Shown here one piece after another: positions 24,312 to 55,249 of a stretch of DNA of 64,000 nt. How positions within the stretch are numbered: position 1 is the stretch's first letter; every line of letters starts with the position of its first letter. Source of the DNA: Amphiscolops sp. MND2022. Its lineage: Eukaryota. The position numbers were made by a program, and so were the translations under genes. Location: NCBI GenBank assembly GCA_964187785.1, contig OZ076409.1, positions 70,372,001 to 70,436,000 on the forward strand. Reading direction: 5' to 3'. The notes beneath the pieces are model-generated. The model worked only from the letters and a program-made list of their open reading frames with translations, was not told the DNA's origin and made no database searches.

Positions 24312-24336
24312 CTGGAACGATCATATGATACAGTTA

Positions 24337-25955: not shown

Positions 25956-26239
25956 AGACATAATGTAATACACATCTAATATTCAAACAGCAGAATATTT
26001 GTTTACGTTGCAATCTGATAGGCTGAAATTTAATTGAATTCACGAAGTTGAAAACGCGTGTCTGATTTTCTCGGAAAAATTATTATAACGTAGTCAGCTA
26101 TGTTCTCATACCCCTAGTGCCCTAAATGCAGGAGCGAAGCGAAGCGACGTGCCATATGGCCATGCCTCAATGTTGCTACTTGGCGAAGGGAGCGAAGCGA
26201 CCGAGCCACCAGAAATTAGATGTTTATTACATTATGTCT
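25956..26239. mobile_element. Small TIR element carrying core-A
   Basis: IR AGACATAATGTAATACACATCTA / TAGATGTTTATTACATTATGTCT around the GAGCGAAGCGA-containing core. Confidence 0.65.
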
Positions 26240-26523
26240 GTAGTAGTTGACTCTTTTGGACTATAGACTTTTTATTGAATAAACTAGAGAAACCTCATAC
26301 AATTGAATGAAAAAATACGAATAATTAATTTTTAGTCAGCGCATTTTAGCAGAAAACACGCACGACTATTACACTGGCAAGTTTTTCTTTTTGTCAGATC
26401 ACACTCTCACACTGAATTGTGAGTACTGCTTTGAGTAATCAACTGACGATAGCTAAACCCTTTTGCTACTGAAAAAAGTCGATTTCCTAAATATATTTGA
26501 GGGATCCATTACCAATAGATATA

Positions 26524-27197
26524 GATTACCAGAAATTTCGTCGTGAGAAATTTCGTCGTCGGAAATTTCGTCGTCGGTGATTACGTTCTATAAAACGTCG
26601 CATTTTCTTTAATCTATTAGGAATTGTCTTATTGTTGATTCTTAAAATTTATCGATAATTGTGCAATAATTACTATCATTGACTACTTTTTGTCATGGTT
26701 TTTGGAGAGAAAAAGACCTTATAACTCTCCATATACACCTTGTTTCTTATCCCCCCAAAACGAAGTTGTTTCGACACTTAAATCAAAAATTTCCATTACC
26801 AAAGGATTTTTTTATTAATTATCTGACCAAAAAGCAAAAACTCCCCCTGGAGCAAGCTTGAATTGTATTGTAAAGCCCCGGTAAGTAGTTCCACCGGTAG
26901 GACTGAAAATATACCATTGCTTAATAAGCGTCTTGATGAGTTGATTGAATCCAATTAACTTTTTGACTCAATTTTGGTGTCAAAATGAAACCTGTTCTTA
27001 AGATCTCATTTTAATAATTAGGTAATTGTATAATTCAAATGATATCTTTTGATGAACGCTGTTATTCTAATCAATACGACGAAATTTCCGACGACGAATT
27101 TTCTGACGACGAAATTTCTGGATTTGCTAATACGACGAAATTTCTTACGACGAAACTTCTGACGACGAAATTTCTGGCGACGAAATTTCCGCCTCCC
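26524..27197. mobile_element. MITE with GAAATTTCGTCGT subterminal arrays
   Basis: Inverted arrays of a 15-bp-period motif at both ends; TAGATATA duplicated at 26516-23 and 27198-205. Confidence 0.7.
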
Positions 27198-27361
27198 TAG
27201 ATATAAACTGCAGGGTATGATTATCACCAAGACCAACTGAAAGCACCAAAAAATTTCCGTTTACTTTCAGAAATAGGCGGGATAGTGATATTTGTTTTAC
27301 ATACAAGGTTTGTAACAAAACATGCCGTTTCACATACATGTAACATCAATGTTCAATACTA

Positions 27362-27613
27362 ACAAGACGGGAACGTCTAAAGTCGTCTAAAATCTATGGC
27401 TCAAAAAAGTTTTGAAAGTATGCTCAGGACCTTTTTTATTCTTTGGTGGAAAGGGGAACCCTTCTGCTTCGGATGCGTTCATAACCAAGTACTTATGATA
27501 AAAGTGCACAGTCCACAAAAAGTGGTACGTGCAGGGTGAGCTCTGTGGTCTGACGAAAAAAACTAGCAACAGTAATAGTCGGGCACTTTTCTCAAGAAAA
27601 GCGCCGACTGAAA
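27362..27613 (-). mobile_element. Short HINE-like copy
   Basis: ACAAGACGGGAACGTC start, AGTCGGGCAC..GCGCCGACT hairpin end. Confidence 0.75.
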
Positions 27614-29395
27614 AAAAATCTGATATAACTATACACTTTTATTAATGTACCGCACAATTATTCAGTGTACCAGTTCACACCGCCTTTCACTCTTTTCGGT
27701 CTAAAAAAATACAAACACTGAGCGTATCTGACGTTTCGCATTCGTATTCAAATACAAGGCAAGGCACTCGGCGTACGAATGGTTAACACTCATTTGCTTA
27801 ATCTCAATGAAAGCGCTGTATCGCCGCAACGAGGATTAAATAAACTAGCTAAAAACTTGGAGCAGCACTGTCTCACTGCTACTGAATTGGCTAACAAATC
27901 GCGTCGGCAAAAAGGCCTAGAAAAAGATCACTTTCGGCTTACGCAGAAATATTATTACAGAAACAAGCCGGGAATGGCAATTATTTGAAAAATATATTCG
28001 ATAAGAGGACCCTGTTAGGCTTGAAAAATGGAAAAGTTTCTAAATCTGATGCATTCTTTGTCACCAAAAAAGTTATTGTGTTATGGTGTCTTGAAATGAA
28101 CACTCAGTCGCAGGTGCATATCCCGAATACTTTCAAATTCCTTATCAATCCCGAAAATAATAGTTATCAATGACGAATTGAACTACAAAAAATCCTTTGC
28201 AGAGTCAACCCGATTCGAGACGTTTAATGATTTCGTTCAACCATAATCGAATTGTTCAACCATATGGTTAAAAAGACGAATGGTTGAAAGATATTCAACA
28301 ATAACCATGGTGGTTAAACTTATCAAACTTCAAACATGTATTCACTGGAAAACATTAGCCAAAAAGTACATAGTTGAAAAAAATACGGCAACGCGCAGAC
28401 GAAAAATGGTATTGTGTAATACAGGAATTCCAAAATAATTGATAACAACAGTTCAGTGGTTAAAACGTTTCAACAATCTAACACAGCATGTGAAATGTGG
28501 TGACTTTCCAAAAACTTGGTATCGAAGCCATCATGTCGTTTGTAAACTAATGAGCAAACTGTATACTTCGAATTGGGCACGAGTTACACTGTTGGAAACC
28601 CGTGGAAAACAATGTGAAAATGATTATCGATTAATCGAAAAATTATTGCACAAAAGTCGCGTCGTGCAACTAGAATCGAAGCTCAAATTTTTCAGAAGTG
28701 CCAAATAGTCAGAAAAGGCTGAACCCTTTGGTGAAATGGAAGGAATCTCAATAAACGCACAGTATTGTAAGAAACTCAAAGGAACCCTTTGCTCTGTTGT
28801 AGTTTCGTAGGCTTGCAAAAATGTGAAAAATTGAGATCGAGGTACATTTTAGATATTAGGCTAGAAGCTTGTGTAAAGTCCTTTAAGTGGAATTGTCAAA
28901 CAGTGAGTTCGAAAAAAAAACTTTTTAATCCAAAGGGATTTTTGACACTGAGATTTTTCAAAAACTTCATAAAACAGCTTTTTAGAGTTTTTGCAAAACG
29001 TCGAGCTTTTTGAGCCTCAAGCGGGGCGCCGAGTTTAGACGTTCCCGTCTTGTTTTGCTTGATTTAGCTCCTGTATGATAATGTTATTCAAAGCTTTCAT
29101 TTTACTGGAATTATGTCCATATTTAATTCGTAGTTTATTTATTGTTTTGAACTAGCTTAATTTTAGTTTTACACCGCCAGAAATTTGATGTCAAGTAAGT
29201 AACCCCTAGACACGACTACCACCAGTATAGCGGGCAGAAGATAACAGGTGGACGAGCCAAAGATACCGCTCCAACCAATCCTAATTAGCTATAGATTCAT
29301 TATTAACTTCCTGAGTTAAAGGAAACTAGTTATCAAATGATGCATAGCATCTACGTTAAAGAGTGACCCAAGGTAGAAGGTCGAACTGGACCTAC

Positions 29396-29591
29396 AGGTG
29401 TGAATCAGCTTTGAAGGTAAGCCCCCCTGCGCTGTCGCCTCCCCCACTGCCGGTTGAGCCAAGAGACACCCTGGGACTCGACTGGGTTGCGGGCGCCGTC
29501 TCGTTGATTGTAGCCACATTGGTGGATGATTCATTCTGGGCTTTCTTCAGCTGCGTAGCGAGAGGCTTGAAGAATTTCAACTGTGATCCAA
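29396..29591 (-). CDS. ERG-like gene, N-terminal linker exon
   Basis: TTTTAG acceptor (phase 1), GSQLKFFKPLATQLKK...ADSH, GTAGGT donor (phase 2) matching the next exon; GC-richer than flanks. Confidence 0.75.
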
Positions 29592-30859
29592 CTAAAATAT
29601 TGCAGAGTGGTAAACATTAAAAACCCAAAATAACTAAAATGAATTTTAAAAAACGAGCATTCATAAAATGATAAACGGGTAACCGATTGCACCAAGTACA
29701 ACATTCACGTGAGTGGGGGATCGCTGACACCTGTGTACCAGCGATGTCATCTCAAGACTCCGCTAATTTTCCAAGAATATGATTTTAGCATGTTAATGAC
29801 AAACATTTTGTAGCAAAGACATTGTCAAAAAGGGGAAATTTAATGTAAATGATGGGGAAAGCATCCATTCAATTTTGATAGCAATAGCGCAGGCAAATGG
29901 GATCACAAAAACTTCCATTCACAAGTTGTCATCAAATTCTTATTTCAAACTGTATTTCTTTCATGCTTGAGTGAAACATTGGTTATTTGAAAAATTTCCT
30001 CCTGCTTGCATTGATGCATGTCCTAAAACATTGGAAAAGCTTTTCACGAAGTATTCTATAGGAGCACTCAGTTGCAGCAAATTAGAACTTATTTAAAAAC
30101 TGTATCAAAGGAAAGCAATAACTTTGAAGAACTTCTTGAATGGTATTAGAAACGATTTTCATGGCTTACGCTTCACTATAATTATGGTGAAAACATACAT
30201 GAAAGGAAAATGAAGTTGAAACAAACCAAATGGAAATTGATCGAATTGGAACCGTTTAAAGTTGTCCCGAGCAGAGTGCCTTTCAAGAATGTTACCGTGA
30301 AAAACGTTATCGATCCATGAACGAAAAGTAAAGAAAGATCGTCCTGTTCTCATCATTGAATTAAACATCGGAACATAGCTAACAATAATTTTCATGCATA
30401 AAATTTAACCGAAGCCTTTTTTTCCATTTTCTATGCTACTCAAGTTAATCTATACGCTTTATCTGTCGATGCAGTTTTTCCATCAAGAAGATATGTCTAA
30501 ATATAGGAATTCGTAGACGTCGAACCCAATTCGATGGGAAAATTGCACCAACAAAGTAAGCAAACTGAAGTTTCAAAAATTTGCTAACTCAATTTTCGAG
30601 CAAACAATTACATACCTATTCATGGCATGCTTTTTCACAACTTTCCAAATATTGATGACACCGATGCTCCTGAGTTGACAACGATGAAATGCGAAAAGAG
30701 ACACTAATCCTCCATCACCGTTGAGGTTTCACTTTTTCAACACAGAGGCGAAGCCGTGCTTCGCAAACACTTGCGCAGGTTGCGAACTTTAGAAGAGAAC
30801 CAAATAAGCAAAATCATACGGAGAACCAAGTGTAAAAAGACATTGTTAAAATTTAATCA

Positions 30860-31700
30860 ATTTTACAGCGCCAAAAAATACCCGAAGGGATACGCATAAA
30901 TCAAATTTCGAAAACCATTTTCCCCAACTGGAAACAGCAAAAACCTATCTTTCTCAACCGGAAACATTAAAAAAAAACAGAAAAATAAGGAAAAAATTCG
31001 AAATTTTTCGAAAAATTTTTTAAAGAAGGTCTCCGGTAAGTCGCATAGTGCCGAAAACCTTGAGCAGTCCTTTATCCTCGCAAAACGTTTCATTTTAAGT
31101 AAAAATTGAGGGAGTCTTTAAAAACTAAATTCGGATATAGCGTGCAGAAAACCTCAGAAAACCAAATTTTAAGACAAAAACTATTCATTTTGAAATTTCT
31201 CACAATGCCGAAAACTGTAAAAGGGGGCCCTTTGAGATTATTTAACAACCATTCTGTTGCAAAATTTCAAAAATAAATTGAGTCTTTGAAAAATTTTTGA
31301 AAAAAAAACAAAAAACGAGAATTTTTGACAGTCGCATAGTGCCGAAAAATCTGAAAGACGGGACCCTTTGGGATTTTTTAACATTCGTTCTGTTGCAAAA
31401 TATCAAAACAAATTGAAGGGAGGACCCTTTGGGGACAATTTTCGAAAAAAAAGTCTCAAAGCCGAAAAAAGGGAGGAGTCTCATATTGCCGAAAAAGTAA
31501 GAACCTTCTGCTTCGGAATACTTGTAAAAAAAATTAGCGCATACTCACGGGTTCGAACACACGATGAAAAGCAAGCATCTTACCACTAGACCACGAACGT
31601 CTAAACTATGCGACTTGCGGGCTGAAACGAGTTGTCGCGCGGAAAAAAAAACACCCGCACTTTCCCATAACACTTGCTTATCGCAAGTGTAACAAGTGAC
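30860..31700. repeat. HINE-family internal sequence including a tRNA-derived segment (31538-31596, minus)
   Basis: GTCGCATAGTGCCGAAAA and GGGACCCTTT modules. The minus strand has an A-box (TGGTCTAGTGG) and B-box (GTTCGAACC). Confidence 0.55.
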
Positions 31701-32190
31701 AAACTATGAAAAAGAGGAATAAAAAAGAAGAAACTAAATTACGGTGGCCTTGACGACAGACCTGTAATCAAAGAATGGAACTTGTATTTAGTGTTATTGT
31801 TTGAAACGCTATTTTTCCCTAACTCTTCAAAACTAATGATTACCATGAGAAAAAGAAAGCTTTAAGTTTGTGAAACTCAATCGACTTTGCATTCATTCAA
31901 ATTTATTTAAAACTTCTACGGAAAATAATGCCAAAATTAGCGAATAACACCTGTCTATGCATTAAGACTCAGATTTGGTTTCCGATCTTTTAGAAGACTT
32001 CAGAAACAAATTCAATAGATTTTTTGAAACTTCCAATTCATCAGTCTACTGATTGCTGTCACATGAAGACCTTTTTACAAGTCCTGTTCGAAGAAATCTA
32101 CATTCTCCATTTAAAATGAATTCGGTATTTTTTAGGGATTGAGGATAGAGCTTAGTCTCGAGGAAAACTGATTTTGTTTTTAATGGTAAA

Positions 32191-32674
32191 TTTGATCACG
32201 TGTCCCTCTTGTTCAGGGACCTATATGGGGCAAACTGTTCGACACTTACATGTACGCGTTAAGGAACATGGACGAAAAGGTACCCCCGTTGCAGATCACT
32301 TTGTTAAATGTGGCGTCGGGGTTAAATGTTAAATTTATAATGTAGAGATCCTGGACAGTGCCTACAACTTGAAATTGTTACTCACATTGGAAGCATTATA
32401 CATTCGGCAACGGCGACCTGGACTGAACACTCGAGATGAATTCAGAAGTCGCGCTCTCTCCTACGTATTTTAGCCCCCCCCATCTGACCTCGCCATTGAT
32501 GCTTTCTGACAACTTGCTGTCGATGTTTATTTATCTATTTGTTCCAGTTTAATTTGATATCTTGTATGACTGTTTATCCATCGAAGTCATTTCAGACAAG
32601 TAATGTAACTGATGATGATCTGTTTAAGGATCGAAAAGCTTTTTAAATATACATTGACATTGCTTTTCCCGAAA
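32191..32674 (+). mobile_element. 5'-truncated Penelope-like element (GIY-YIG C-terminus + 3' UTR)
   Basis: ITCPSCSGTYMGQTVRHLHVRVKEH...EILDSA..LLTLEALYIRQRRPGLN; flanking 11-bp direct repeat TTAATGGTAAA (32180-90, 32675-85). Confidence 0.85.
32602..32655 (+). ncRNA. Minimal type-I hammerhead ribozyme variant
   Basis: Stem I AATGTA/TACATT, CTGATGA core, stem II GATCT/GGATC, GAAA, palindromic AAAAGCTTTT in place of stem III. Confidence 0.7.
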
Positions 32675-33539: not shown

Positions 33540-35720
33540 TTTTTATCATTTTGCGCGAAGTCGCCAAAAATGTCAAAATTTGTAAAATATTGTTTTCGAC
33601 AACATTGCGGTCATTCGAAAAACTTTTCGAAGGAACTGTAGATGTCTTTTTAAAAACGCCTATCGGATAACGGGTCAAATCGTTCTTGAATTACAAAATT
33701 GCTCGAAAGGTTTACAAAAAAGTAAATCAACATTTTAAAAACAAAAAGGATTCTTCACTTATTTCAAGTCGTTCTGACAAACTTTTTACATACAAAAATG
33801 TAAATATCATTTTTTGAACATTCTGCCAGCCTGTTTAAAAAAATTAGACTTTTTGAAAACTACGAAATTTTGATAACTTTCAATAAAAATTATCTAATTT
33901 GACAAACAAATTATCGGGGTCGTTTTGAGGCTCTAATCTATCGTGAAACCGCAATTGACCTTCAAAAAGCCTACTGAATAACGCATTCGTTCGCTGTTGA
34001 ACTCAAAATTCAATGTTTAAAACTTCAAAACTTCGAAAAAAAACAGGATTAAAAACGCCGAAAAATTTGAAAACTTTGAATTTTTGGTTATTTTAGGGTC
34101 ATTTTGAGGCTCTTCCCGAACATGAAACTGCAATTGATTTTCAAAAAGTCAACTCTACTTCGGGTTTGTTTGCTGTTGAATATTTTCACTTTTTAATAAA
34201 CGAAATTTACGAAATTTCCAATAAAAATTGATTCTCCGAAAAAGTTTCGGATTTTCGACTCATTTGGGTCCTTCTGAGATAATGTTCAACCTAGTAAACT
34301 ACAAAGTTTTCCTTCAAAAGGCGTACTGCATAGCTTGATAAACCGTCGGGAGCTTCAGGACCATCTAGTTTCACAATCACTAAAATTGTCAAAAAAATGA
34401 AACCGGATATTTTATAGTTTTCGGTTCAGATTGAGACATTTTCCAAACACAAATCAGCAAATACTTCCCACAAAATCCAACTGGATATCAACTTCACTTG
34501 CTGTTGTACCATTTTATTTTTTTAACCATCGAAACGTTTCGAAAATTCACAGACATTGCACAAAAACGTTTGAAATGTCAATTCTACCTTCCGACTCACT
34601 GGTGGTTTTGAAGTAGTTCTGATGTAAAACACTGTAACTTCCTCATCAAAAAAAGAAACTACATACCTGATTCTTTCGCCTTTGACTGCTTTCAACCTTC
34701 TAACTAACAAAAATTCTTAAACATTGCACTCAAATAACATGAAGAAGCTACATAAACTGCAAATGTTTGGATTTTCGACCAATTTTGGGTCAAATTAAAT
34801 CTGTTTTATCAGAAACCGGCACTTATCCCTTCAAACAGCCGTCTGGACAACGCATTCATTAGCTGTTGAACAGTTTTAGAATTTTAATCTAAGAGAACGT
34901 TGAAAATTTTTACAAAAAATGCATTGGAAATTCGAAAATTTTTTTAATAGGTATTTTTTGACTATTTTGGGATCATTGTCGCAATTTTTTTTTACAAAAC
35001 TGCATTAATCTCATCACAAAACCTATTGAACAACGGATTCATTCGTTGTTGAACGTTTTCAACGTTCTGATTAATTTAATCTGAAAATTGGACAAAAGTT
35101 GCATAAAAACGATAAAAATTGGTACATTTTGGAGTTTTTGTCATTCTTGGTCGCATTTTGAGACTTTTTCATTAAAAACTGCGTCTATTTCTTCACAAAA
35201 GCCTCCCAGACATCGAACTGGTTCCTTGTTGAACGTCTTTAAAATTCTAAGCCAGCAGGTCTTTCGAAAAATAGACGAAACTTGCATGAAATTTTTAAAA
35301 ATCTGGGAATTTTAAAAAATATTTTGGGATTTTTGTCAAGTTCGGGCTAAATTTGAGGCATTTTTTCAAAACAAGTTGCATTTATCTCTTCGAAAAAAAC
35401 CTCTTGAACAACGAAGTCTTTCCTTGTTAAACCTTTTTAACTTTCTAAGCAAGCAAGTGAATCAAACATTTGACAAACAAAAATTGCATAAAAAGTTAAA
35501 AATCTGAACTTTTTGGAATTTTTTTCAATTTCGGTCTCAATTTGAGGTTGTTTTTCCATTGAAAATTGCATTTTTTCCTTCTAAAAAGCCTCTTGGATAA
35601 CGAAATATTTTCCCCTTTTGAACGTTTTCAACAATGTAAGCCACGAAATCTATCGAAAATTTGACAAAAATTGCATAGAAACGTCGAAAATCGGAAAACG
35701 TAAATAATATCCTTTTCAAT
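33540..35720. repeat. Highly diverged tandem array, period about 180 bp
   Basis: Recurring GGGTCATTTTGAGGC..AAACTGCA..TTCAAAAAGCC..GTTGAA module near 33917, 34097, 34265, 34787, 34968, 35148, 35344, 35532. Confidence 0.7.
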
Positions 35721-38995: not shown

Positions 38996-40637
38996 TTTAT
39001 TAAAATGGACATCACGACATGCGATAGAACAAGACATGACACAGAGGAAAAGAAAACACTAAGAATTCACGTCCGTATTCGGCATTACGAGATTCCAATG
39101 TTATGGATATAGACTTCCAGCTCGAAACAAAGATTATAGGACTGATTACACGTCGAACAAGAAGTCTTGAACAAAACTCATCAAACTGAAAAATTGAAGA
39201 ATGTATTCGATAGGTTCAATCCGAATTCTCTTCAACCAAATCATGTTCGAAGGAAATGTTGTTTCCACGAATGGAGAAATTTTGATGGAAAGTAGGCAAA
39301 TGTTAGAGCGATATTTCCAAACTGAAGATTATCCATGTTTATAAAACATCTTGCAATTCGGAGCTTTCTGAACCTTGTCAGATATTCACAATATGCCTTT
39401 GATAAGCAGCACGTGTATTGAAGTGGGCTGAAGAGGACATGAAAACAGAAAAGACGATCCTCTAAATAGAGACAACATATCCAGTATACCTTATGTACAC
39501 TAATTTACAGCTTGAGAACATGATTAAATAACAGTTTTAAGAGATAACAACGACAAAAGGACCTTAGCGGGAACTTCAAACATCCGGCGGCGACCAGGGG
39601 CCATAGAACCGAATACGTTTAGGCTGTGAGAATAATCAGTTGTCATCAACAAAAAGCTTCCATAGAGACTCTCTCGAACATGCGGGGTTCAAGGCGTAAT
39701 TAATCATATGATGACGTCATTGCGCATATTGTGACATTTTAAGCATGACAACACGTTAGGTAACTTTTCTGTAAAGGAGTCGACAATGAAACAGTTGACA
39801 GTTGTTCTGTTCCGACAAATACAATTTGGACAGAACAATTTTAGAGCTTTGGAAAAGGCGTTGAACCGTGACAGATCAATTATTCATGATTCAAGGGACG
39901 AAGCAAGAACATTTCAGCTAAATACTGCTGAAGCAGACTGGACGATGTCTGCTGCTATTTCCAGGTTCTACTCAGAAATCAAATTAAAAACTGTTTCAGT
40001 AAGAACACAGAGGTAACTCAACGTACATGTGCCGTCTAGAACTATGCAGTCAATCATTTCCCCATAACAATACAATTTGTTGGTTCCAACGCCAGACAAA
40101 AACTATGGTATTTCACCACGTTTCAGGAACAAAACTAGATCTTGGACCCAAAATGGATATAATTGACAGTGAAATTTAATTTATTTTCTCTTTTACACGG
40201 AAGCGCTTCCCATAGCATCACTTGAATCACTGAAGCGTTCCGCTTACAGGAAACGTTTGAAGGGAAAGCATCAGAAAAGAATCACTGCTAATCAGAAGAC
40301 CTAAACTGACGAGCACAAATTTAAGCTACAAAAAGAAATACCTAACTTATCAAACACCAGTCAATTCTTCAAGATTCTATGTTACTACCAAATATTAAAT
40401 AAAACACTTATCGAAATTTCTGAGGCTCAATTTATCGAATTTTAGGATCAATGGAGGTCATAATACGTACGAAAATTTCAAACTGAAGTCTCCTCCCAAT
40501 CAAAGAACGGCCTTTTATGGCAAAACAGACACCTATCTCGTCTGTCATAGCCTAGTCAGATTGATTTTCAGAGAAAGGTTGCCGATGCAGATCTACATGC
40601 ACAAACATCACAACAAAAGATAAGCTAAGCTGTTTAC

Positions 40638-40763
40638 ACTTTTGAGATCCGGATCTTCCAGTCTGGGTGTTGGTGATGTCTTCGAAGTTGAGAATGAACA
40701 ACACAATCTCATCCTGGTCGTTTTTCACCGGCAGCACCACTACTTGACACAAGAAGCCAGAGT
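40638..40763 (-). CDS. KCNH2: ERG-like gene exon 3 (PAC motif)
   Basis: SGFLCQVVVLPVKNDQDEIVLFILNFEDIT matches the ERG/EAG PAC motif. TTTCAG acceptor, GTAAAC donor, phase 1-1. Confidence 0.92.
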
Positions 40764-42392
40764 CTGAAACATAGCTCTGCATATTAATCACAATTTCAGA
40801 GTTGAAACTGTATTAACGAGGCGAATACAACATTAAAACTAGACAGGGTTATTCAACAAAAATACCTGATGCTTGTTCAATGAATATCTGATAGTTGTCT
40901 GGAGACTTGTTAAACCAAATTTTGTTGATGTTGAAAATTAAATGCAAACTGACACTGCAGAAACTGATTAGTTGAAAAGTTATCACGATATCTAGTCTTT
41001 AGTTTTTGCTACTTTTCCAAGCTGACATTGTGAACAGATTCCGTGATCATTTGAATCTTACATTAAAAATCTGCATCAATTCCATGAGATACATACAAAA
41101 TTATACAGAAAAATGAATGAAAGCACAATTCACGAAACAATTTCACTGGTACAAAAAGATTATTAGATGACCCCGCCCGCGTGAATTCATTAAATAAAAA
41201 ACCACAAGACAATGGTACAATAATCATTAATATTAACTTGAATGCGATTAATATTCATAACAAGGTGGCCAGGCGAACATCTTTTTTGGACACAACTCTC
41301 TAACCATTATTAGCTATCACTTCAACGACGTACGTACTGCTCCTTGCCTGGCAACTTTGAACGTGATCTTAATGAAGCATTCATAGTTTGAAAAATAAGT
41401 GATATTGCAATGTTGTTTTCGATTCTCAGCGAAGGTAGCGAGCAACAGCAATCTGCGAAAATGTCAGACAATATGTGCATTATTCATGATCCCGTTTCAA
41501 GATACAAACGACAAATAGAAAGATGAACAACAGAAGGCTGGGTCAATCATGAAGTTATAGACATCATCTGACAAATACATTTTCAATCAATTACCGCAAT
41601 TCTAAATTGTAAGCTGTCAATCACTAATCACACAGAACACCGCGACCTTGCCCTTTTACGAATATACAATGACAACAATTGGCAGATTAAGTTCGTCGGA
41701 AAACTTACACATGGATCGAAGAAACATTCAAAACCTAAAATGAAGGAGAAACAAAAACTTGAAAAGAAGAAAATTAACTGATATCATAACTTTCCAATGA
41801 GTCGTGATTTTCGTTCACAAAAATTCAACGATGCGGGGCAGAATTTTTGATAAACCTACGAAAAACCATGAAAATAACAATCAGTGAAAAAATAATCTTG
41901 AATAATCAGTGAAAAAAAATTAAACGTTTGGATGCCTTCTGTCAAATTTCGTCGAAGACGTTCAATTTAATAGAACAAGGAAGCGTTTTAATTTTTACTG
42001 GAATGCCGAGAAACAAACTTTATCTTTTCAATCGAAAATGATTTTAAAATGAAGGCTTCTTGTCTAGCAACTTCGTCTTTTAATGTTATCTCAAAATCTA
42101 TTATAAACTTTCAAAGATCTGATTCAACTAAGTCAGGAAAAATAGACGCAACAGTCTAAAGCATGGATCTAAAAACAGCGGCGACCACTTTGAGGAAGGA
42201 AAATCGAGTGCAATTCAAACCAGCTCAAAGTTACTCAAACAAAACTGCTGAATGTTTAATTTTCTAATCAATTAGTTTCACAGTTTCCATTGAAATTGAA
42301 AGAGCTCGAGAAACTGACAAATTTGAAAGCAAAAAAGAAAACCAAGAAAATTTTGACAGCATCATGAATTTGTTGTATTGACTTCAACTAAC

Positions 42393-42623
42393 CGTCTTTC
42401 TTTTTCAGAAGAAGTTCCAGACTTGTTTCTGTTCTACACAGAATGCTGTCCACCAATTGCTTGATGGCCTGAGGATTGGTTTTGTCGCCGTACAAAAAGT
42501 CCACTTTACACGACTTCTGCATGATCTCAGCCCGAGAGTAGCCAGTGAGATCACAAAACCCGTCATTGCAGTAGATTATACCACAGTGGTCTGTTTTTGC
42601 ATTAGCTATCAGGAAATTTCTGT
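42393..42623 (-). CDS. KCNH2: ERG-like gene exon 2 (PAS domain)
   Basis: RNFLIANAKTDHCGIIYCNDGFCDLTGYSRAEIMQKSCKVDFLYG...KKKD. TTTTAG acceptor, GTTAGT donor, 231 nt, phase 1-1. Confidence 0.95.
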
Positions 42624-42665
42624 CTAAAACACATATCAAATGAAGAAAAAATCCCAAAAGAATCA

Positions 42666-43236
42666 TTTTAGTCGGCGTTTTTTTGTCAATTCAATGCGAT
42701 CGGTCCATTTTGTGCACTGCGCACTTTTACCGTAAGCACTTAGTACTTCATTTTTAACGCATCCAAAGCCTGTAAAGTGAAATACAAAACCATTCCAAAG
42801 CAGAAGGGTCCCCTTTCCACTTTTACGGCACTATAAGACTTCCCCCTTTTTTCGGATTCATGACACTTTTTTTTCAAAAATTTTCAATGTCTCTAATGGG
42901 TACTCCCTTTAATTTTTTGATATCAACAAAAGGAATGTTAAAAAATCCCAAAGGGTCCCCCTTTTCACATTTTCGGCAGTATGAGACTGCTCACAATTCT
43001 CATTTTTCGTCTGATATTGGGTTTTCTCAATATATATCCACCACTGTTTTCAATACTATCCGAAATTTTTTCAAGACAGGCGTTTTTCCAATATTATGCG
43101 ACTTTTTTAAAATTTGTTTTCATCGAAGTCCTTTCTGGATTTTCGTTAGAAACCAAAAGTTTTGCGAGCATAGAAGACTCCTTAGGGTTTTAGACATTTT
43201 ATGACTTACTGGAGACATTTTTTGTTCCCGGCTTAT
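42666..43236 (+). mobile_element. HINE-like copy
   Basis: TTTTAGTCGGCG start, GTTCCCGGCTTAT end, family interior. Confidence 0.72.
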
Positions 43237-45317: not shown

Positions 45318-45728
45318 CCTATCACTCCTGTATCACTCCATAGACTATCTGAAACATGAAAACACACGGAATGAGGAAAGATTCATGCCTGACAGGAGAA
45401 AAAATCATCCTAATCAACAGTTTCACGAATTTCGACCGCATAAAACTATCCGAAAAATCATTATACGTTTAATTGGGGTATTATATAATGGAATTAAAGC
45501 GTTTCAAATGTTGATAGTAAATATCCAAGACTGAGCAACTCATGATTTAATTTTAATCCACTGTTTTTTATAAAGTATACGGGTAAGAAAGTATTGATAT
45601 AACGTCAAATATGCTTGCATCCCTTGAAAATGAACTATATGTTTCTGAAGTAAGAGAGAGAGAGACGCTTAGTTACTATACCTTAAAAAAAGAAAACTCA
45701 TTTGGTACAGTACAATACAATAATTCAA

Positions 45729-46088
45729 TATAGTCAACTCCGGTTAATTCGTATCCGGATAATTCGGATCTTCGTCTAATTCGTATAAATTTGAGACCCC
45801 TATTTAGTGACGATCAAAGTATAGTCAACTCCGGTTAATTCGTATCCGGATAATTCGGATCTTCGTCTAATTCGTATAAATTTGAGACCCCTATTTAGTG
45901 ACGATCAAAGTATAGTCAACTCCGGTTAATTCGTATCCGGATAATTCGGATCTTCGTTTAATTCGTATGTATCTGAGACCCCCATTTCGCGAGGACCAAA
46001 GTAATATCATCCGGTTAATCCGTATTTCTCACTATTCGTACTATTTTATTCGGTCCCCAGTGATACGAATTAGGCGGATTCTACTGTA
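45729..46088. mobile_element. Tc1/pogo-like MITE with triplicated 91-bp left end
   Basis: TA-flanked TIR TATAGTCAACTCCGGTTAATTCG / CGAATTAGGCGGATTCTACTGTA; units start at 45729, 45820, 45911. Confidence 0.8.
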
Positions 46089-47579
46089 ACAAACAATATT
46101 CAGATGTAGCTCATTGTCTTGCGTCTTGACTATCGGACAGGTCGGAACCCACCGAAGCTACCGATACGTTTTTAGGCAACATAAGGCTGACATCTTTTTG
46201 TGACATCATGAATAATTTGTAATTTCCTAATTATCTAGAATAAAACTTTAAAAAAAACAGGATTCATTCCGTTTTCAAGTGTGCTGAGACAACTGGGAAC
46301 TCTGACTAAATCATTTTTTCTGACTTCCGGTAAGATTCTCATTCAGACAATTCTATAGCACTTCTCCAACGTGACCAATTAGGGCAACTGAGATCGAAAT
46401 CTCTCCAATGACAAGTTTTTACAACAATTTTCCGGGAAAACTGACAACCTGTGCCATGGCAAGTCACTTTACAACCATAATTTTCAATTCCAGGTTTGTG
46501 ACATGCCAGCATCGTAATAACTTCGGAAGTATGCCAAGAAAAACCGCAGCAACCTCGATTTCAATCCAACATCGTCGAAGAACTTGGCGCGTCACGTTCT
46601 CGTGAAAAATACCAAGAGCTTCAGAAAATTTGATTGCGTAACCACGTGTCATCAGTTGTACTTGTCTCGTGTTACGGCGCCCCTGCTACTTTATGCCGCG
46701 AACACAAGTTCTGATGCTAACGTCCAATATCGTCTACGTATATAAAACAGAGAAACAGGATGTCAGTGCCTACGTTGTTATTTTTCTTCAACGGAGTAGT
46801 AAACGTTTAATCCGATTCTCAATTTTTTTCAAGTCAGGTTTGATAGCACGAAATTTTTTCATGGTTTTCGTCACGGAAAAAAAGTTCAAGATTTTGAGAA
46901 TATTTGGTCAGTTTGAAGCTCTAGTCTAAGTTCAGCGGACGAAAGTAGGTAAAATACTTAGTTTCAATTACGAAATTATTAAACATAGAAAACAGAGTAT
47001 GATTGATTGCAAACAAGAAGATGTTTCTGGCCGCCATTCTGATCTGAAGAGCCATTGAGATCCGCTGCTTCAACAAGCTGCCACATCGTTGATCGTCGCG
47101 CGAACGACGAGCATTTTACAGAGACGCGTAAAAGACGCATAAAATATAGAAGACATTGACTCATTGAATCTAGACCCTGAAGACTGCAATACTATTGTCG
47201 ACTAGATCTCACATACAACGAAGTTAAAAGGAATCGTATAGCTCTCATCATTAAATCCTAACCTAACTTTATCCAACTCTCAATGCTCTTTTTGTACTAT
47301 TTATACGTTGAACAACCTCCCGCAAATTGAGGATATTAGAAAATATTTATATAAAGAGACGCGTGAAGAAAATTTCACTTCTCTCGTCTAAAGAACCCTG
47401 TACTTCATTGCAACCGGTTGGTAATTTAATTGACTTTAATTCGCGATACTTCTAAATCTTACGCGCTTCAGCCTCGCTAGCGGTGGTTCATGGGAGCTGG
47501 ACTTTGCGACAGTGAGGGCGAGCGTGCATACACAGAATATGCCCCACATTATGATAGTCAATCGACTTCAGGCAAACAA

Positions 47580-49001
47580 AGAACGTTTTCGACCCGTTCG
47601 ATCAAATTCGACCGATCAAAGAAGGCTTCGATCAATTTCGCCCGCATTCCTTTCGATCCCTGCAGTTTGATCAAAAGGGTCAGGGACATTTCGTCACCAG
47701 CCATTTGGGCGACAATATGGCGTCGGTCACATGGACGACAAAAGTGTCGACCAAATGGGTTGATGAATTGATCAATTAACTGATATATTTGAAGAGGTTA
47801 GCATATTTGTTGTATGGCTCGGTCGTTTCGCTCCCTTCACCAAGTAGAACATTGAGGCATGGTCATATGGCACGTCGCTCCGGTTCGCTTCGCTCCCGCT
47901 TTTAGGGCGGTGGGCGGAAGTAGGTCGAAGGAACGGGATCGAAAATCAGAGTTAGTCCTCAGGTCGACATACCAAATTTTTTGAATGGGATCGAAACAAC
48001 TCGGATCGAAATTTTTATAACGTAGTCAGATATGTTCACATACCCCTAGTGCCCTGAATGCAGGAGCGAAGCGAAGCGGAGCGACGTGCCATATTGCCAT
48101 GCCTCAATGTTGCTACTTGGCGAAGGGAGCGAAGCGACCGAGCCATACAACAAATACGATAAAATTCGACCGCATTCCATTCGATCCCTGTAATTCGATC
48201 AAAAGGTTCGACCTCAGTCCTTTCGACCAGAAAAATTCGACCTATTTACAGCCACCCCTTTTAGGGCACTAGAGGTATGTGAACATATTTCGCTATTTAG
48301 TTTACGGGACATTTGGGCGACATTATTGTCGCCGAAACGGGCTGAAATTTTTGTCGCCCAAATGGCTGGTCACGAAACGTCCCTGCCCCGATCAAAAGGA
48401 TGCAGGTCATTTCGCCTAATGCCATTTCGCCTAAAAATTTAGTTGAGTCATTTCGCCTAAGAAAATTAGGCGAAATGACCAAACGGGAATAACGTCTAAG
48501 TAATCATGTTTCGAAAAAGGCTTTCTGAAAGCGAAAATATCAAAATGTGGGGCATATGCGGTGTATGCACACTCGCCCTCACCGTCGCAAAGACCAGCTC
48601 CCACTACGATCGCTTCGCGATCTCCGTTCCCGCTAGGTCTTTGCTCCTGTTCGACCTCGCTTAGCAAGATGGAACATAAGCGGCCCCAAGGGGCCGCGGG
48701 GCACTAGAAGGAATGGGACATATCCGAGGCACGTTTTCTATTTTATATCACTTTTCAGTTTTAGATCTTAAACGATTTATTTGTTTTCCAATTTCATGTG
48801 TTTTTCACGTTTCTGAAAAAAAATTAGGCGAAGTGACCAAAGTAAAAGACGTTTCGCCTAAAAAAATTAGGCGAAGTGACCAAACACGTTAGGCGAAATG
48901 ACTTTAGGCGAAATGGCATTAGGCGAAATGACCATTTCCCGATCAAAAGGTTCGACCTCTGTCCTTTCGATCAGAAAAATTCGACCTATTTACAGCCACC
49001 C
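47580..49001. mobile_element. Nest of four Mutator-like MITEs
   Basis: The outer TTCGACC-family element is split at GATCAAAA by elements 47677-48389 and 48398-48940. A further TTCGACC copy, 47909-48257, has TSD CTTTTAGGGC. Confidence 0.8.
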
Positions 49002-49438
49002 GTGCACGGGTTGCATAAGGAGTCTTGATTCAGGCGACTTGGTACAAGAGCATCCACTACCGTGATATCTCACACCAGATGTTTAGAATTAGGTCCAGCT
49101 TGAAGACTACCAGTTTGAAGAATTCTACGAACTGGTCCTAGACAGTCCAGTTTGTAGAAATTTTTTCAACAAACTGGATTATTAAGTTCTACAAACTGGA
49201 TATCCTTCACACAAGATCCAAAGAGGGGTGTATTTCAAATGTTTTCTCGGGCATGATACGTCGATTTAACGAATTGAAAGTGATTCAAAGTCAATTTTCA
49301 AGATTGTGTTTTCTTTGGGCTGAGGGTATTCTATCAGACAACAGAACACATGTGAGGCCAACTCAACGCCCCTTTTACTGCCTACGCCTACTTGCCGAGA
49401 CCGTATCTTGCTCGACGTGATTCAAAGACCAGGTATTC

Positions 49439-52400
49439 TGTGGGATTCGATATATAGAAACGTTTTGTATAGTCAAGAAAATGTTTGTTTCAGAAAGTTG
49501 AAATAAAGTTTTAACCCCTATCGTTTTAATCACGACTATTTTCAACTATCTATTTTATCAGTTTCCCGAGTGTCATGTCAAACTTTTTGCTGCAGTTCAG
49601 TAGATATTTGAGCGTTGCAAAGGTAGAAGAAGCCAACAAACTAGACCTGTTTTTGGTCGGCGCATTTTAGTAGAAAATGTGCCCGACAATTACAGTGGGT
49701 AGTTTTTTTTAGACACGAAAGGTCCACTTTTTGTTCATTTGTTCAACAACCTCCACAACTTCAAACCTCAACAACTCCAACCTCAGAAGCGTCCAAAACG
49801 AAAAGAAAAAACAAAACAGACGTCCACAACCTCGAAATCACACTAAGAATCCCCATTTTTTTCGGAACTATGCGACTTTTTGAAACTTTCTGGATTGAAA
49901 TTTTTCCCCAAAGGGTCCCCCCTTCAATTTTTTTGATGTCTTGCAATACAATGGATGTCAAAAAAATTGCAAAGGGTCCCCCTTTTACATTTTTCGGCAC
50001 TGTGACACCGTTCAAAAATCTCATTAAAAAAATTTTTCGGAAGTTTTTTTCATGTCTCCAAAGGGTCCCCCCTTCATTTTTTTAAAATTTTTTTTGCAAA
50101 CAGCTGGAGTTTCACAAAGCCCGAAGGGTCCCCCTTTTAAATTTTGAGCCTTAGATATGGCGCCGACTTTGGCCGTTCCCGGCTTGTTACTTTGTTGCGG
50201 CGAAAAGATATAAGCTTATTACAACGAATTAACATGGGAGCCCTTAACACAAGCAGAAAAAGACGCGGGAGAAACAGATTTCAAACGAGCAGTTACCTTT
50301 GCCAAAACCAAGCTCTCCGGCGGGAAGAATGTCTTAGCTGAACGAGTAAAATTATACTTACACAAACAAAAGAATAACCAGTCAATCAACCATTTTGTTA
50401 GTGAACTGCGTTCAATAGCCAAGTTTTGTGAGTTTCCAACAGCTTTTTCAGACCAAGCAATCAGAGATGCATTTTGTCAAAGTTTGAAATCTGAAAGCGT
50501 CAGGAAAGGAGTATATCGAGCGTTTGCGACTAATCAGAAAAGTAAGAAAGAATTATCTCTCTCTGATGCTATATCAGCTGCTGAAATCGAAGAATCAACA
50601 ATAGAGACCATGTCTTCAATCGACAGCGCAGGATCAGAGCACACACCCATCACTGAATGAAGTAAACACTTCAACAATTACTAGCACTGAGTTAGTCCCC
50701 GCAAGTACACTCACCAAAAACATTGGGAAAGGAATATGTTACCGGTGTGGCTCAACAACCATTCATGGAAGAAGTGAGTGTCCCGCAAGTGGAAAAACAT
50801 GCCTTAACTGCGGAATCGATGGACATTTCAGATCAGTTTGCCAGAGAAAAAACAAAAAGTGTCCAGTTTGCGAAACCCTGTAATTGCCGCTGCTAGCACT
50901 TGTGGCAATAGGAAATGCGTAGACTTGAAAATAAATGGAAAAATTGTATCGTGGTTAATCGATTCGGGTAGTGACTTATCAATAATAGATTTATCACTGG
51001 CCAAGTCTCTAGGCGCCAAGCCTTACAACATCACAACACAGAAACCTAGCGCAATCAACAATTCCATTTTTGAGTTAAACAAAAAATGCTATTTGACTTT
51101 GCAACTGAGTTCTGGGGAGCTCCATATTTCTGTAAAAATTTATCCGACCAAGCGTTGCTGGGAACAAATGATTTATCTAATTTCAAATCAGTAGAAATAA
51201 CGTACGATGGATCACTTCCAACACTCAATGTTTCATCATCGGCATCTCAAATCGTCAACGAGTTTCCAGATGTGTTCGATCAAAGAACACAGATGGAAAT
51301 TACACCGATTCCAATCATAGCAGTTTCGCCTGATGCAGCACCTATTCGCACAAAACCAAGACCAAGGACATTAGCTGACAAACAATTTATTCGCGAAGAA
51401 GTCAGGAAACTGCTTAATAATGGTGTCATTGTCGAAAGCCAATCACCCTGGCGGTCACAAGTTGTAGCAGATGCCTTGAGCCGCATAAGCTCACTTACAT
51501 CCAATACGGTCGAGCAAGACACGAAAGATATGGCTCTAAAATTACATCGAGAGATGGGTCACCCTGACGCCCACAGACTTTCCAAATTCTTAGCGCCACG
51601 CGTGAACAGTCAAGAAAACCTTCAAAAAATTCCATAAAAAGTCATTAGCGAATGCGAAATATGTGCACAATTAAATCCGCGGTTCGTTAGAGTACCAACA
51701 ATACCATTAATTCAATCAGCAAAACCATGGAGTCGAGTTTCAATCAATTTTGTTGGACCTAAAGCAGTTAGTCACCGGGGATGCAGGAGGATTTTCACAG
51801 TAGTGGACGAATATTCAAGTTACCCGTTTGCGTTTGCTTTGCCTTAGATAACTACAGAAGCTGCTGTTCAGTGCTTGACAAATCTTTTTTTTTGCTGTTT
51901 GGTCCCCCAAGTTACGTTCACAGCGATCGAGGTTCGCAATTTGACAGCAATAAGTTTAGGGCCTTTCTAGACAGTTGGAATATTGGCAAATCGAGGACAA
52001 CGCCTTACCATCCGTCTGGCATTGGGTAAGTAGAACGTTATAACAGCATCATATGGAGGACTGTTTCACTCCGATTAGCTGAAAAAAACTTACCGGCAAA
52101 ATTCTGGGAAGACGAATTGGCATTCGCGTTATCAAACATCCGAGCTCTCCCGTCTCGAGCTATCAACAATTCGACACCACATGCCCTATTTCTTTCATTC
52201 GCTCGAAGGTCCACAATCGACGAGGAACAACAATTAGTATCCACTAAGGTTGAACAATTTAAATTGCCAAACTGGTTGAAAGAAAGAAACCATGCTTATA
52301 TCAAAAACCATCGGAGAACGCATAAAGCTGATCCTTTAGTATATAAAGTTTTAATAAGGAAAATTTTATCATCACACCATGCTGAAGTTTTACTCATAAA

Positions 52401-52996
52401 CAGTTGACGATTATAAACAGTTTCAACAAGGCATTTATCACGAGCTCACACTGAAATCACAGTCAAGCCAGAAGAGACTTTTAAAGCAGTTGACCATGCA
52501 CCACCGCATTCAGCCAGCAAAATTCCTGCAGCAGAACCAACAATTGAAATAAAAGATGAACCAGAAGATCCTGTCTTAGAAACCAAAATAGAAAACATAA
52601 TTATCGAAAACACTTCTCTTGGAGCAATCAACGACGACACACTATCTGTGCTCAATAATTGCGACGAACCGATTCACAACACTTCTCTGCAAGCAAATGA
52701 AAGCGGAGACAATCTGACACTAAATAATTATAATCAGGATGAAATAACACCAGAAAACCAGCAGGAAATCAATGAAACATCCCTCAGTACAAGGCCAACG
52801 CGCAAGAAGGAAAAACCAAACATGTTCGGAGATTGGGTGTACGGGTAGTTAGCGGTCAAGCTGTTGGGTTATCTTTAAATTTATTATGCTGGGTGAATGT
52901 GGGAATCGATATATAGACACGTTTTGTATAATCAAGAATATGTTTGTTTCAGATAGTTGAAATAAAGTTTTAACCCCTATCGTTTTATTCACAACA
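49439..52996 (+). mobile_element. Gypsy/Ty3 LTR retrotransposon, defective (RT-RNaseH deleted)
   Basis: 99-bp LTRs at 49439-49537 and 52898-52996 (8 mismatches by eye), TSD TATTC/TATCC, gag with Zn knuckles (CLNCGIDGHFRSVC), protease LIDSGS, integrase (HSDRGSQF, TTPYHP). Confidence 0.9.
49651..50187 (+). mobile_element. Complete HINE-like copy inserted in Gypsy gag
   Basis: Removing it restores gag KLDLLLCCGEK (CTG T|TA CTT); no TSD. Confidence 0.82.
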
Positions 52997-53251
52997 TATC
53001 CGGAACAATTTGCGGACAGCTTGCAAAAAGTATTGCCTACGGCGATAGAACGAAATTCTCCATCGGGCTTTTTTAGCGTAAGTGGTTTCGCACCAAAGAA
53101 GTACGTTCAAAGTTCGGAAGATTCTTTTCCTTCGAGAATCACATTCTCAAGATTTGTTAGGGCTCTGAGAAAATTCGGTCCTGTTTGCCGGACTCCATGG
53201 CGGTGAAACCTTTCAAAATTCGGGAAAAAATGCCTTCCAAACCTGCATTAG

Positions 53252-53806
53252 GGTTACCAGTCACTTGGCTTAATACCATTTGGCTTAATTTTTTCGTCGA
53301 GTCATTTGGCTTAATAATTTTAAGCCAAGTCACCACAAAATTAAGCCAACTCCTTTCCAACTCAAGGGATAAATATGTCAACTCCCGGAAAAGTCAAAAT
53401 GTGGGGCATTTGCGGTGTATGCACGCTCGCCCTCACCGTCGCAAAGACCAGCTCCCACTACGATCGCTTCGCGATCTTCGTTCCCGCTAGGTCTTTGCTC
53501 CTGTTCGACCTCGCTTAGCAAGATGGGAATATAAACGGCCCCAAGATGCCGCAGGGCACTAGAGGAAATGGGGACATATCCGAGGGGTACTTGATATGAC
53601 GTTATAATAATACGCTGACTACGTTATAGAGATACATTCGACAAAATCTGCCACGTGTTTTCAACTAAGAGGTTTTAAGTCAAATGACTTTAGGCCAAGT
53701 GACCAATACCCGAGACACATAGGTTAAAAAAATTAAGCCAAGTGACCAATTTTATTAAGCCAAAAGACTTTAAGCCAAATGGCATTAAGCCAAGTGACCA
53801 TTTACT
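53252..53806. mobile_element. MITE with TTAAGCCAA arrays carrying core-B
   Basis: TIR ..GTCACTTGGCTTAAT / ATTAAGCCAAGTGAC.., TSD TGCATTAG (53244-51, 53807-14). Confidence 0.8.
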
Positions 53807-55249
53807 TGCATTAGAGCCGTTGGGGAACGACATTAGAGCCTTCTGAACGAAAAACTCCGAGGTTGAAAAACAATAGAGATATGTGGGGTCCGGAATAAAG
53901 CAAAGTTCCCACAGCGGATACTTCAGCTTGAGGGCCGTGTTGTTGTCAACCATGCAATCGGCTATCTTGCCGTCGCCTACTGCAGTTCTGTTTCCGGCTT
54001 CAACATTACCTTTGCCTAATTTAGTGCAAATGGATTGCAGACGTCGATCTAATTCGCTTTTTCGTTGCAATTTTTTGTCATTACACGGTTTTTTCACAAT
54101 GACACGATCCCGAGTACGCTTGTTGGTAATGGCACTAAGTGATGAACTCTCACATTTACCTACTCCAGGTGATTTTTCCAAAAAACACCTTGGAGAGGAA
54201 AGCAGTAAGCACTGCAAAGCAAAAGTTGACGCCGTTTCACAAATATTATCAATTTTAGGTATCAAGATTTCTGCTAGGGTGATCCGTGAAGTTTTAGTAA
54301 TTCTTTTCAAGTGTACAACGCCTGATTAAAAGAGGGTGTCTTGTCTAAAGGTAACATCATGACACTGACGGATAGCGTTCACTAAAAGACACCTACAGCA
54401 TTTAAACTCGGCAAGGCACAGGGCCTTTGTTCTTGATAAATTGGCGCATTTTATTTGAACCCATCAGTTGCAAAGCCTACAATTTACCCAGTCTATCAAC
54501 CCCGAGGGCTTTATACACTTCGGAGCATTGCTGGTTTTGTTGTTTTTCATCAAACTCAACCTCGAAACCTAACTAATAGCAGGAATACTACTTTTGGGTG
54601 CGTAACAATCTCCCCAGAAAACAACCACCATTGTGAATCAATCAGTATAGGAAACAAAACCTTGAATTGATGAAACGAAATATAAGTGGACTTATCTCAC
54701 CGGGTTGTGATAGTTTGTATTTTTTTCAGCGTCAGAGATGTTGTCCAGTTGTCTCAAATTCGAATCATTATCAACTTTATTCAATGAGTTGAGTTTATCA
54801 CAACAATTAGACTACCAAATGTAGAGCATTTACAAAAAACGTTCACACTATCCTTCATAATTTAAATATCAATGTAATGCAACTTTGCAATATTAGCGCG
54901 ACGAATGGCACAAGAAATGTTTTAGAAAGGAAGGTCTGATTTTATATGAAGAGATTAGCGTACTTGTCGTGTGTATGACTCGGTCGCTTCGATCCTTTCG
55001 CCAAGTAGCAACATTGAGGCATGGCCATTAACACGTCGCTCCGCTTCGCTTCTGCAATTAGGACACTAGGGGTATGTGAATATAGCTAATAACGTTATGC
55101 TAACTCCAACAAACTCCGCCACGCGTTTTCAACGTGGTGATTTTCAGTCAAATGGTATCAAGCCAAGTGAACAGTTACCCAACACGTTTGGCTTTACAAA
55201 ACTTGCCGAAGTGACCAAATGCACTCCTCATATTTGAAGATGTGAATGG

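Follow-up and report, generated by a model that had tools for sequence, protein, structure and literature searches.

Conserved interiors in known elements

[quoted passage not shown] They out-amplify their autonomous partners. The nearest described system is the CMITE found in Acropora corals (Wang et al. 2010), in which, going by the part of that report available, the interior is conserved above the terminal inverted repeats (TIRs) within piggyBac MITEs (PMC2872659). In the window described here (the whole stretch analysed, 64 kb of Amphiscolops sp. MND2022, contig OZ076409.1, nt 70372001 – 70436000, forward strand), gene-less MITEs or MITE fragments, called wrappers below, carry a middle piece (the core) in two versions, A and B, both of which are found under more than one kind of arm. 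The favoured explanation, given about an even chance of being correct, is that the core is a selected cis module of non-autonomous DNA transposons, swapped between wrappers by recombination.

The first-pass annotation of this DNA knew of no named system for such a core; coral CMITEs do show a like pattern, within piggyBac MITEs (PMC2872659), so that the statement is true only in part. An interior conserved above the TIRs across families is seen in the present wrappers as well. CMITEs are about 100 bp long and, as described, all of piggyBac type with TTAA target site duplications (TSDs), whereas the wrappers here are of the Mutator-like element (MULE) type, with 8–9-bp TSDs, or TA-flanked; neither TTAA TSDs nor the CC(C/T)T ends of piggyBac were found in them. 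There are two alternative cores in the present wrappers, and a strand-polar G.A zipper is unreported for CMITEs in the available text, the two systems being compared by description only (PMC2872659).

Other known elements share traits with this locus. The Muta1/type-2 foldback MULEs of Aedes aegypti similarly have 8–9-bp TSDs and long TIRs of 9–15-bp repeats, with a period of about 15 bp, and the left end of one element listed below (TTAAGCCA) resembles the Muta1 terminal motif; in the accessible parts of these reports Muta1 derivatives have heterogeneous interiors, whereas here several families share one interior (PMC5225508, PMC5499845). Cycling between heteromorphs and homomorphs of maize Mu (Hunter et al. 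2023) uncouples TIRs from interiors by nesting, recombination and gene conversion, but as presented in the text available it takes place within one family, is about mudra/mudrb, and involves neither a conserved non-coding core nor the crossing of superfamilies (PMC10401008). The non-autonomous Helentrons HINE and DINE-1 (Thomas et al. 2014) have hairpins and lack TSDs, and DINE-1 has a conserved core; unlike HINEs, for which the accessible text gives subterminal inverted repeats (subTIRs) of 12–15 bp, the present cores lack subTIRs and fixed T-flanked ends, and none is found free in the window (PMC4067079). Mini-hairpins of the phage G4 origin, ssiA and the N4 promoter use the same triloop words as the cores and, like them, are clustered and strand-specific, but in the portion available they are described as signals for priming or for promoters in prokaryotes, with proteins that are known, while the cores are known from sequence only (PMC13037366).

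A G.A-zipper/triloop core in eukaryotic MITEs was not reported in the literature searched (main texts, mostly non-subscription, and few Repbase reports). Already known are an interior conserved above the TIRs, as in CMITEs, and internal sequences that modulate MITE mobility (PMC9921582, as far as its available text goes); not found in the literature searched were the crossing from MULE-type to TA-flanked ends, a pair of interchangeable cores and the strand-polar G.A zipper.

Two cores in seven copies

The first-pass annotation had placed core A at about 26040–26208, 47803–48295, 48017–48158 and 54965–55135, and core B at 48541–48730, 53396–53670 and, in part, 47480–47551. These positions were confirmed, the A copies lying on the +, -, + and - strands, respectively; the core A at 47803–48295 is a single core divided by a nested element, and the partial copy of core B is a fragment at about 47474–47556. 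The copies matched each other by self-BLAST at E values of 1e-18 to 1e-78, and profile searches of the 64-kb window gave no additional cores.

26099–26208 (+): body of core A1; zipper hairpin at 26181–26208
47803–47907 and 48267–48288, in the GGGCGACA MITE (-): core A2, divided by a nested element
48016–48158, in the inner TTCGACC MITE (+): core A3; zipper at 48118–48145
54976–55084, in a decayed fragment (-): core A4
48543–48724, in the TTCGCCTA MITE (-): core B1; zipper at 48596–48634
53398–53581, in the TTAAGCCA MITE (-): core B2; zipper at 53450–53488, upstream block at 53608–53665
47474–47556 (+): core B3, distal fragment only, joined to a TTCGACC-type arm; no left arm or TSD partner upstream

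Pairs of core A are 86–97% identical over the 110–115-base body, and the complete B cores, B1 and B2, are identical at 172 of 182 positions (95%). Common to both versions is a proximal block that reads ATATGT..CAT..CTAGTGCCC along what is called here the GAA strand. Their distal similarity is weaker, with p values of 0.004–0.03 in the four comparisons involving B3 and of 0.01–0.12 in the eight involving B1 or B2, for which the highest-scoring match was often at another position. An end block common to both versions, GGGCACTAG..CATAT, had been claimed and is present in six of the seven copies, the exception being the B fragment, which does not include that end. Allowing at most three mismatches, the continuation words that had been noted occur in three of seven copies each (CCACGCGTTTTCAAC-type and CTGACTACGTTATA). 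The annotation would have been undermined had most cores lain outside MITEs; all seven lie within MITEs or MITE fragments, and none outside, in the 64 kb.

Wrapper elements

Five elements are complete with clean ends, while the core copies at 47474 and 54965 belong to one-armed fragments. The wrappers, and one MITE of similar build without a core, are as follows.

25953–26240 (+): TA-flanked MITE (AGACATAATG element), short TIRs CAG...CTG, TA on both sides; carries A1
47586–49001 (47586–47676 and 48949–49001; +): right arm of an outer TTCGACC element, split by a tandem pair of MITEs at one GATCAAAA site
47677–48389 (-): GGGCGACA MITE, 8-bp TSD GATCAAAA; carries A2
47908–48257 (+): inner TTCGACC MITE, perfect 9-bp TSD CTTTTAGGG, inserted within core A2; carries A3
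48398–48940 (-): TTCGCCTA MITE, 8-bp TSD GATCAAAA with symmetric ends, a 9-bp reading being possible too; carries B1
53252–53806 (-): TTAAGCCA MITE, perfect 8-bp TSD TGCATTAG; carries B2 and an upstream block
54935–55218 (-): decayed fragment with A4, an upstream block and the inner arm part of the TTAAGCCA/TTCGCCTA lineage; no termini
26524–27197 (no strand assigned): core-less foldback MITE, 15-bp repeats AAATTTCGTCG, 8-bp TSD TAGATATA, MULE-like build

Judged by their ends and TSDs, four of the wrappers look like Muta1-type foldback MULE MITEs. Their duplications fall in the 8–9 (10) bp range of the MULE type, with a perfect 8 bp in the GGGCGACA, TTAAGCCA and TTCGCCTA elements (the last with symmetric ends) and 9 bp in the TTCGACC element, and they have long TIRs with subterminal repeats, of 15-bp period in the TTCGCCTA and TTAAGCCA arms and less regular in the GGGCGACA and TTCGACC arms. 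Transposons of the hAT, P and Merlin groups also give 8-bp TSDs and hence are alternatives to MULEs for these wrappers. No MULE transposase was found among the 92 open reading frames (ORFs) scanned (92 of the 98 ORFs of at least 85 aa in the window; the six left out overlap scanned ORFs). The fifth complete element, at 25953–26240, has TA on both sides, CAG ends and 25-nt arms that are 96% complementary; it is a single copy with two extra bases at its left end, and by its ends may be Tc1/mariner-like.

Homology between TTCGCCTA and TTAAGCCA runs the full length of the elements, with 76% identity in an alignment of 426 nt and z scores of 19–36 against shuffles for corresponding arms, and the arm fragment at 55.1 kb groups with this lineage (z 5–17). 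Arms of the GGGCGACA element are weakly similar to it (z 1–6). For the TTCGACC arms, z does not exceed 4 against other wrappers, in a comparison of low power, as even the left and the right arm of this same element reach only 3–5 against each other; the outer TTCGACC arm is about 91% identical to that of the inner element, with the common end CAGCCACCC. The AGACATAATG arms score at most 2 against all other wrappers. The core-less MITE at 26524–27197 has arms with a weak likeness to those of the GGGCGACA and TTCGCCTA elements (z 2–10). The proposed count of at least five unrelated wrappers was therefore too high, as a single lineage takes in TTCGCCTA, TTAAGCCA and the fragment at 55.1 kb; homology, which would have overturned the idea if general, holds for these three and not for all. 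From sequence comparison, the wrappers represent three or four lineages in what are probably two superfamilies, and the TA-flanked element is the only one clearly foreign to the others. The central position ascribed to the core is seen in four of the five complete elements, while the AGACATAATG element has 146 nt on one side of it and 32 on the other.

Cores uncoupled from arms

The closest pair of A cores, identical at 107 of 110 positions (97%), comes from the TA-flanked and the TTCGACC elements, whose arms are unrelated (z of at most 1). Between B1 and B2 the arm-side segments show 91 of 120 and 94 of 137 identities (69–76%), against 95% in the core, and the 5' spacer (46/90, 51%) is at chance level, random pairs averaging 56%. 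All four arm-core combinations occur, TTCGACC arms being found with A3 and B3 and those of the TTAAGCCA lineage with A4 and with B1/B2. Thus the latter arms hold B twice and A once, and in the TTCGACC type it is the inner element that has A and the outer fragment that has B. Swapping of the core between wrappers is needed because descent within one family cannot give four arm-core combinations. Modular exchange between transposon families, which had been one of two suggestions, is supported by these combinations and by core identity far above that of arms and spacers.

Core borders

The other suggestion had been that the core is itself a mobile cassette of second order that targets the centres of MITEs. 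Where local alignments stop differs from pair to pair, on both sides, so that the borders are staggered. Cores A1, A4 and B2 share an upstream block, of which A3 retains half and which A2 and B1 lack; A2 and A4 share about 35 more bases downstream of the body. No consistent direct repeat was found among 18 candidate border pairs, where the longest repeats were of 2–7 nt and mostly different words. Repeats of 6 nt or more occurred at 2 of the 18 pairs, compared with 5% at random, and the 7-nt repeat is an internal ATATG word, not host sequence. Nor were subterminal inverted repeats found, the best match between core ends (7–8 nt with one mismatch) being at chance level. A search for a coding partner, as had been proposed, was run on the window ORFs and gave no HUH or tyrosine-recombinase gene above noise among the 92 scanned; a Rep_N match at 63066 (E 0.006) falls below the cut-off and lies inside a tandem repeat. 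The defined, T-flanked ends of a Helentron are not seen, as the borders are staggered pair by pair, and the lack of a consistent duplication is compatible with a Helentron but not diagnostic of one. Given the staggered borders and the lack of a duplication, a subterminal repeat or a recombinase gene, the cassette idea is not supported, and the module is probably not mobile by itself.

One-strand fold

Words of the form GCGNAGC occur 21 times in the window. Twelve fall in cores, and with respect to the end block each of these is on the GAA strand; the remaining nine are close to the chance expectation of 9.35. Mini-hairpins of this sequence are described, in the portion of the report available, as having a much higher stability in DNA than in RNA, withstanding nucleases, being poorly bound by single-strand binding protein, and occurring in the N4 promoter and where phage priming takes place (PMC13037366). 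Under a zipper rule that allows G-N-A triloops and short G...A internal loops, the cores give hairpins of 28 bases in A1 and A3 and of 39 bases in B1 and B2. Zipper scores are 13 (A1), 13 (A3), 8 (A2), 16 (B1) and 16 (B2), each reached by none of 1000 shuffles, and the opposite strands score 0–3. Six of the nine matches with a score of at least 6 in the window, including the five highest, are in cores. The only change between B1 and B2 within the zipper, GGA to GAA, retains the G-N-A pattern. Standard energy models leave sheared pairs out; for core B they give a favourable RNA fold (z -3.6 and -2.0). As modelled, both cores have the potential to form GNA-triloop, sheared-G.A hairpins on one strand only, which would be typical of single-stranded DNA.

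Nested insertions at 47.5–49.0 kb

Three core-bearing elements are nested inside other core-bearing elements with their TSDs intact: one core-A element lies within another core A, and two more lie within the arm of a core-B element. Exchange of cores is feasible because this nest places core-bearing elements inside one another. Three of seven insertions thus lie within core-bearing elements, against an expected share of 4% (p roughly 0.002, or 0.03 when the two tandem insertions are taken together as a single event, in a window picked for this feature). At 47669–48948, members of two different MITE families lie in tandem at one and the same GATCAAAA site within the arm of a third MITE, a pattern that suggests a target preference or insertion beside an existing end.

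Upstream block

Upstream of three of the cores are two motifs at nearly constant distance, of which the copy beside A1 is an example.

26047–26091 (+): two-motif block of A1, GTTGAAAACGCGTG, 23-nt spacer, TATAACGT; promoter-like geometry

The spacer between the motifs measures 20–23 nt in 3/3 copies that have both, its sequence being free, and the distance from TATAACGT to CTAGTG is 30 nt in 3/3 A copies that retain it. In B2 the distance from the TATA-like word to CTAGTG is 44 or 66, not 30. A run of four T residues ends B1 and B2, and the end of core A has none. The block may resemble promoters of type-3 polymerase III genes, which combine an upstream element and a TATA box at fixed spacing with a T4 terminator, and its fixed spacing with a free spacer sequence is counted below in favour of a transcript. 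A known structured RNA or short interspersed element was not found in the window, there being no Rfam match at gathering score (those around the nest were at chance level) and no tRNA by ARAGORN. Fanzor omega-RNA was considered and rejected, since the core has an internal position flanked by arms that differ, and the 92 scanned ORFs include nothing TnpB-like.

Occurrence outside the window

Core-specific words were absent from the viral and metagenome contigs searched, and core B had no match in plasmids. A 22-base match to core B in a bacterial metagenome-assembled genome loses homology at about 24 bases and is treated as motif reuse or chance, and core A gave only 26-base matches in phages (E about 0.1). 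The generic 19-base hairpin of the fold is more widespread, with 14 viral loci and at least 126 metagenome stretches, and it recurs in many prokaryotic repeats. Against 139 hairpin loci the core-B profile had no match and the core-A profile matched only the short hairpin used to collect them; extended homology of the cores to prokaryotic repeats is therefore not shown by these comparisons. In 62 of 102 non-redundant metagenome loci the zipper is extended by the unconstrained left flank, the background being 0.8% for a 4-mer.

A crude attC-like pattern fits 12 of the 102 metagenome loci. Attachment-site-like stem-loops of this kind with the core-A G.A-zipper hairpin at the apex, on the top strand, are found at L024, L027, L032, L051, L062, L070, L074, L076, L115, L117, L119 and L124. 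Four AT-rich loci (L095, L103, L116, L118), perhaps animal MITEs, share the hairpin and about 20–50 more bases, set between flanks of at least two kinds. Two AT-rich bacterial contigs (L030/L031 and L046/L047) each carry two inverted, hairpin-bearing repeats 4–6 kb apart around short cargo genes, and are possibly composite mobile units.

Possible role of the cores and alternative explanations

As the core serves both MULE-type and TA-flanked ends, it is presumably not the binding site of one transposase, and would therefore act through host machinery or its own structure. The pattern suggests a putative helper module that can be interchanged, and not a separate parasite. Template switching or recombination, between copies that are nested or under repair, would move the core among wrappers and leave staggered borders. 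A single-stranded-DNA mechanism is put forward tentatively as the most likely one, at less than even odds. When the strand becomes single-stranded, either as lagging-strand template or as repair strand after excision, GNA-triloop/G.A-zipper hairpins may form that withstand nucleases and single-strand binding proteins and cause synthesis to pause or to be primed anew. This might favour transposition beside replication and full copying back into the donor gap, resulting in a net copy gain for any wrapper, and template switches would be promoted, spreading the core. That strand-polar G.A-zipper DNA is a transposase-independent 'booster', raising the copy gain of any cut-and-paste MITE, is possible but doubtful. 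If true, such a booster would act on host replication or gap repair, be traded between superfamilies in animals, represent a cross-domain cis-acting principle, and explain why some MITEs amplify so well. A core nearly unchanged under unrelated ends, with a one-strand fold, is a concrete candidate for a host-level enhancer of MITE amplification; if it is one, it bears on the unexplained interior of CMITEs and could improve non-viral transposon vectors.

Several observations weigh against a selected, swapped module. The sample is small (seven copies in one 64-kb window), the claim of crossing between superfamilies rests on the single TA-flanked copy, and the argument from four combinations leans on B3 and A4, both one-armed fragments. 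The core is not required, as shown by the MULE-type MITE without one (26524–27197), and the hairpin is not specific to MITE centres, strong flanking inverted repeats being found at 10 of 96 outside loci and 5 of 198 controls. The zipper rule was written post hoc, the A4 zipper scores 3 (p 0.14), and standard energy models give core A no stability beyond that of shuffles (z +0.25 to +2.3); the G.T wobbles and tandem G.A pairs of the cores also fit RNA. Compensatory base changes number 0 of 58 predicted pairs between B1 and B2. The A copies carry 1, 6, 2 and 10 private substitutions (A1 to A4), none shared, and several of those in A2 and A4 disrupt the zipper. High core identity could reflect recent capture, not selection, and this has to be reckoned with because compensatory changes are lacking and the substitutions of A2 and A4 are private.

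Capture without benefit is the substance of one alternative, in which a repeat fragment or an old rolling-circle or viral origin was taken up once, by transduplication of the Pack-MULE kind, and spread recently through nesting and deletion, its hairpins being relics of the donor. The star-like private decay of core A without covariation agrees with this, the nest gives a substrate, and non-autonomous Aedes MULEs are described as holding heterogeneous captured interiors (PMC5225508, in its available part). A neutral passenger would not, however, readily explain why the two different bodies A and B, lying between blocks that they share, agree in polarity and in type of fold, why none of the seven cores lies outside a MITE or MITE fragment, or why spacers have fallen to chance level beside a core that has not diverged, and it is considered unlikely. 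Host transcription of the cassette, the main alternative and also considered unlikely, would account for other features: a two-part external promoter (GTTGAAAACRCGTG and a TATA-like word) would give a structured non-coding RNA, or open chromatin, and any wrapper carrying it would escape silencing and attract MULE insertions. The constant motif spacings (3/3 in both cases), the T run closing B1 and B2, the RNA fold of core B and the nesting excess (3/7) all point this way. Set against them are the loss or degeneration of the block in A2 and B1 although the body is kept, the deviant distances in B2, the missing T run of core A, the lack of Rfam and tRNA matches in the window, and the fact that C(GAA)G triloops are, in the text available, a speciality of DNA (PMC13037366).

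A second-order mobile element of Helentron/HINE-, Replitron- or Crypton-like type, using an HUH enzyme or tyrosine recombinase to target MITE centres, is improbable. HUH enzymes do read single-strand hairpins, and an ATATG-like word stands at both body ends in several copies. Missing duplications are also compatible, since rolling-circle elements are described as lacking TSDs (PMC4067079, available text). The cores nevertheless have no fixed ends, their inverted matches are at chance level compared with the subTIRs of HINEs, no partner gene is among the 92 ORFs, no free-standing core occurs in the window, and core-specific words are in no virus contig searched. Least of all would one expect a single old MITE family with diverged arms and a vertically inherited core, which can hardly be correct even though three wrappers are one lineage and four share the MULE-type build, as the TA-flanked element has another TSD class, its 97% core identity lies over dissimilar arms, and A and B are both paired with the same arms.

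Other features of the window

The window is repeat-rich, with a G+C content of about 38%. A frameshifted piggyBac-type transposase lies at 2577–4406 (-). A LINE-type endonuclease and reverse transcriptase (5620–9039, +) is split by a repeat insertion at about 6665–7156. The latter belongs to a very abundant repeat, with copies at 6665–7156, 9354–10020, 10077–11023, 11272–11781, 18810–19517, 24334–24868, 27354–27615, 31022–31519, 42679–43223, 49649–50189 and 61470–61879. Its internal units are in tandem, its start is TTAACAAG-like and a hairpin lies close to its end, and it is presumably a HINE-type non-autonomous Helentron; the copies at 24335–24868 and 49649–50189 are 87% identical. One copy interrupts the remnant of a long terminal repeat (LTR) retrotransposon at 49439–52995, which has 98-bp terminal matches (93% identical) and protease and integrase fragments in broken frames. 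Exons encoding a PAS domain are located at 42391–42690 (-) and 40555–40812 (-), with the MITE nest on their 5' side; they resemble what we take to be the EAG/ERG potassium channel family. Tandem arrays occur at 33917–35696, 45729–46025 and 63097–63365, with units of about 185, 91 and 135 bp, respectively.

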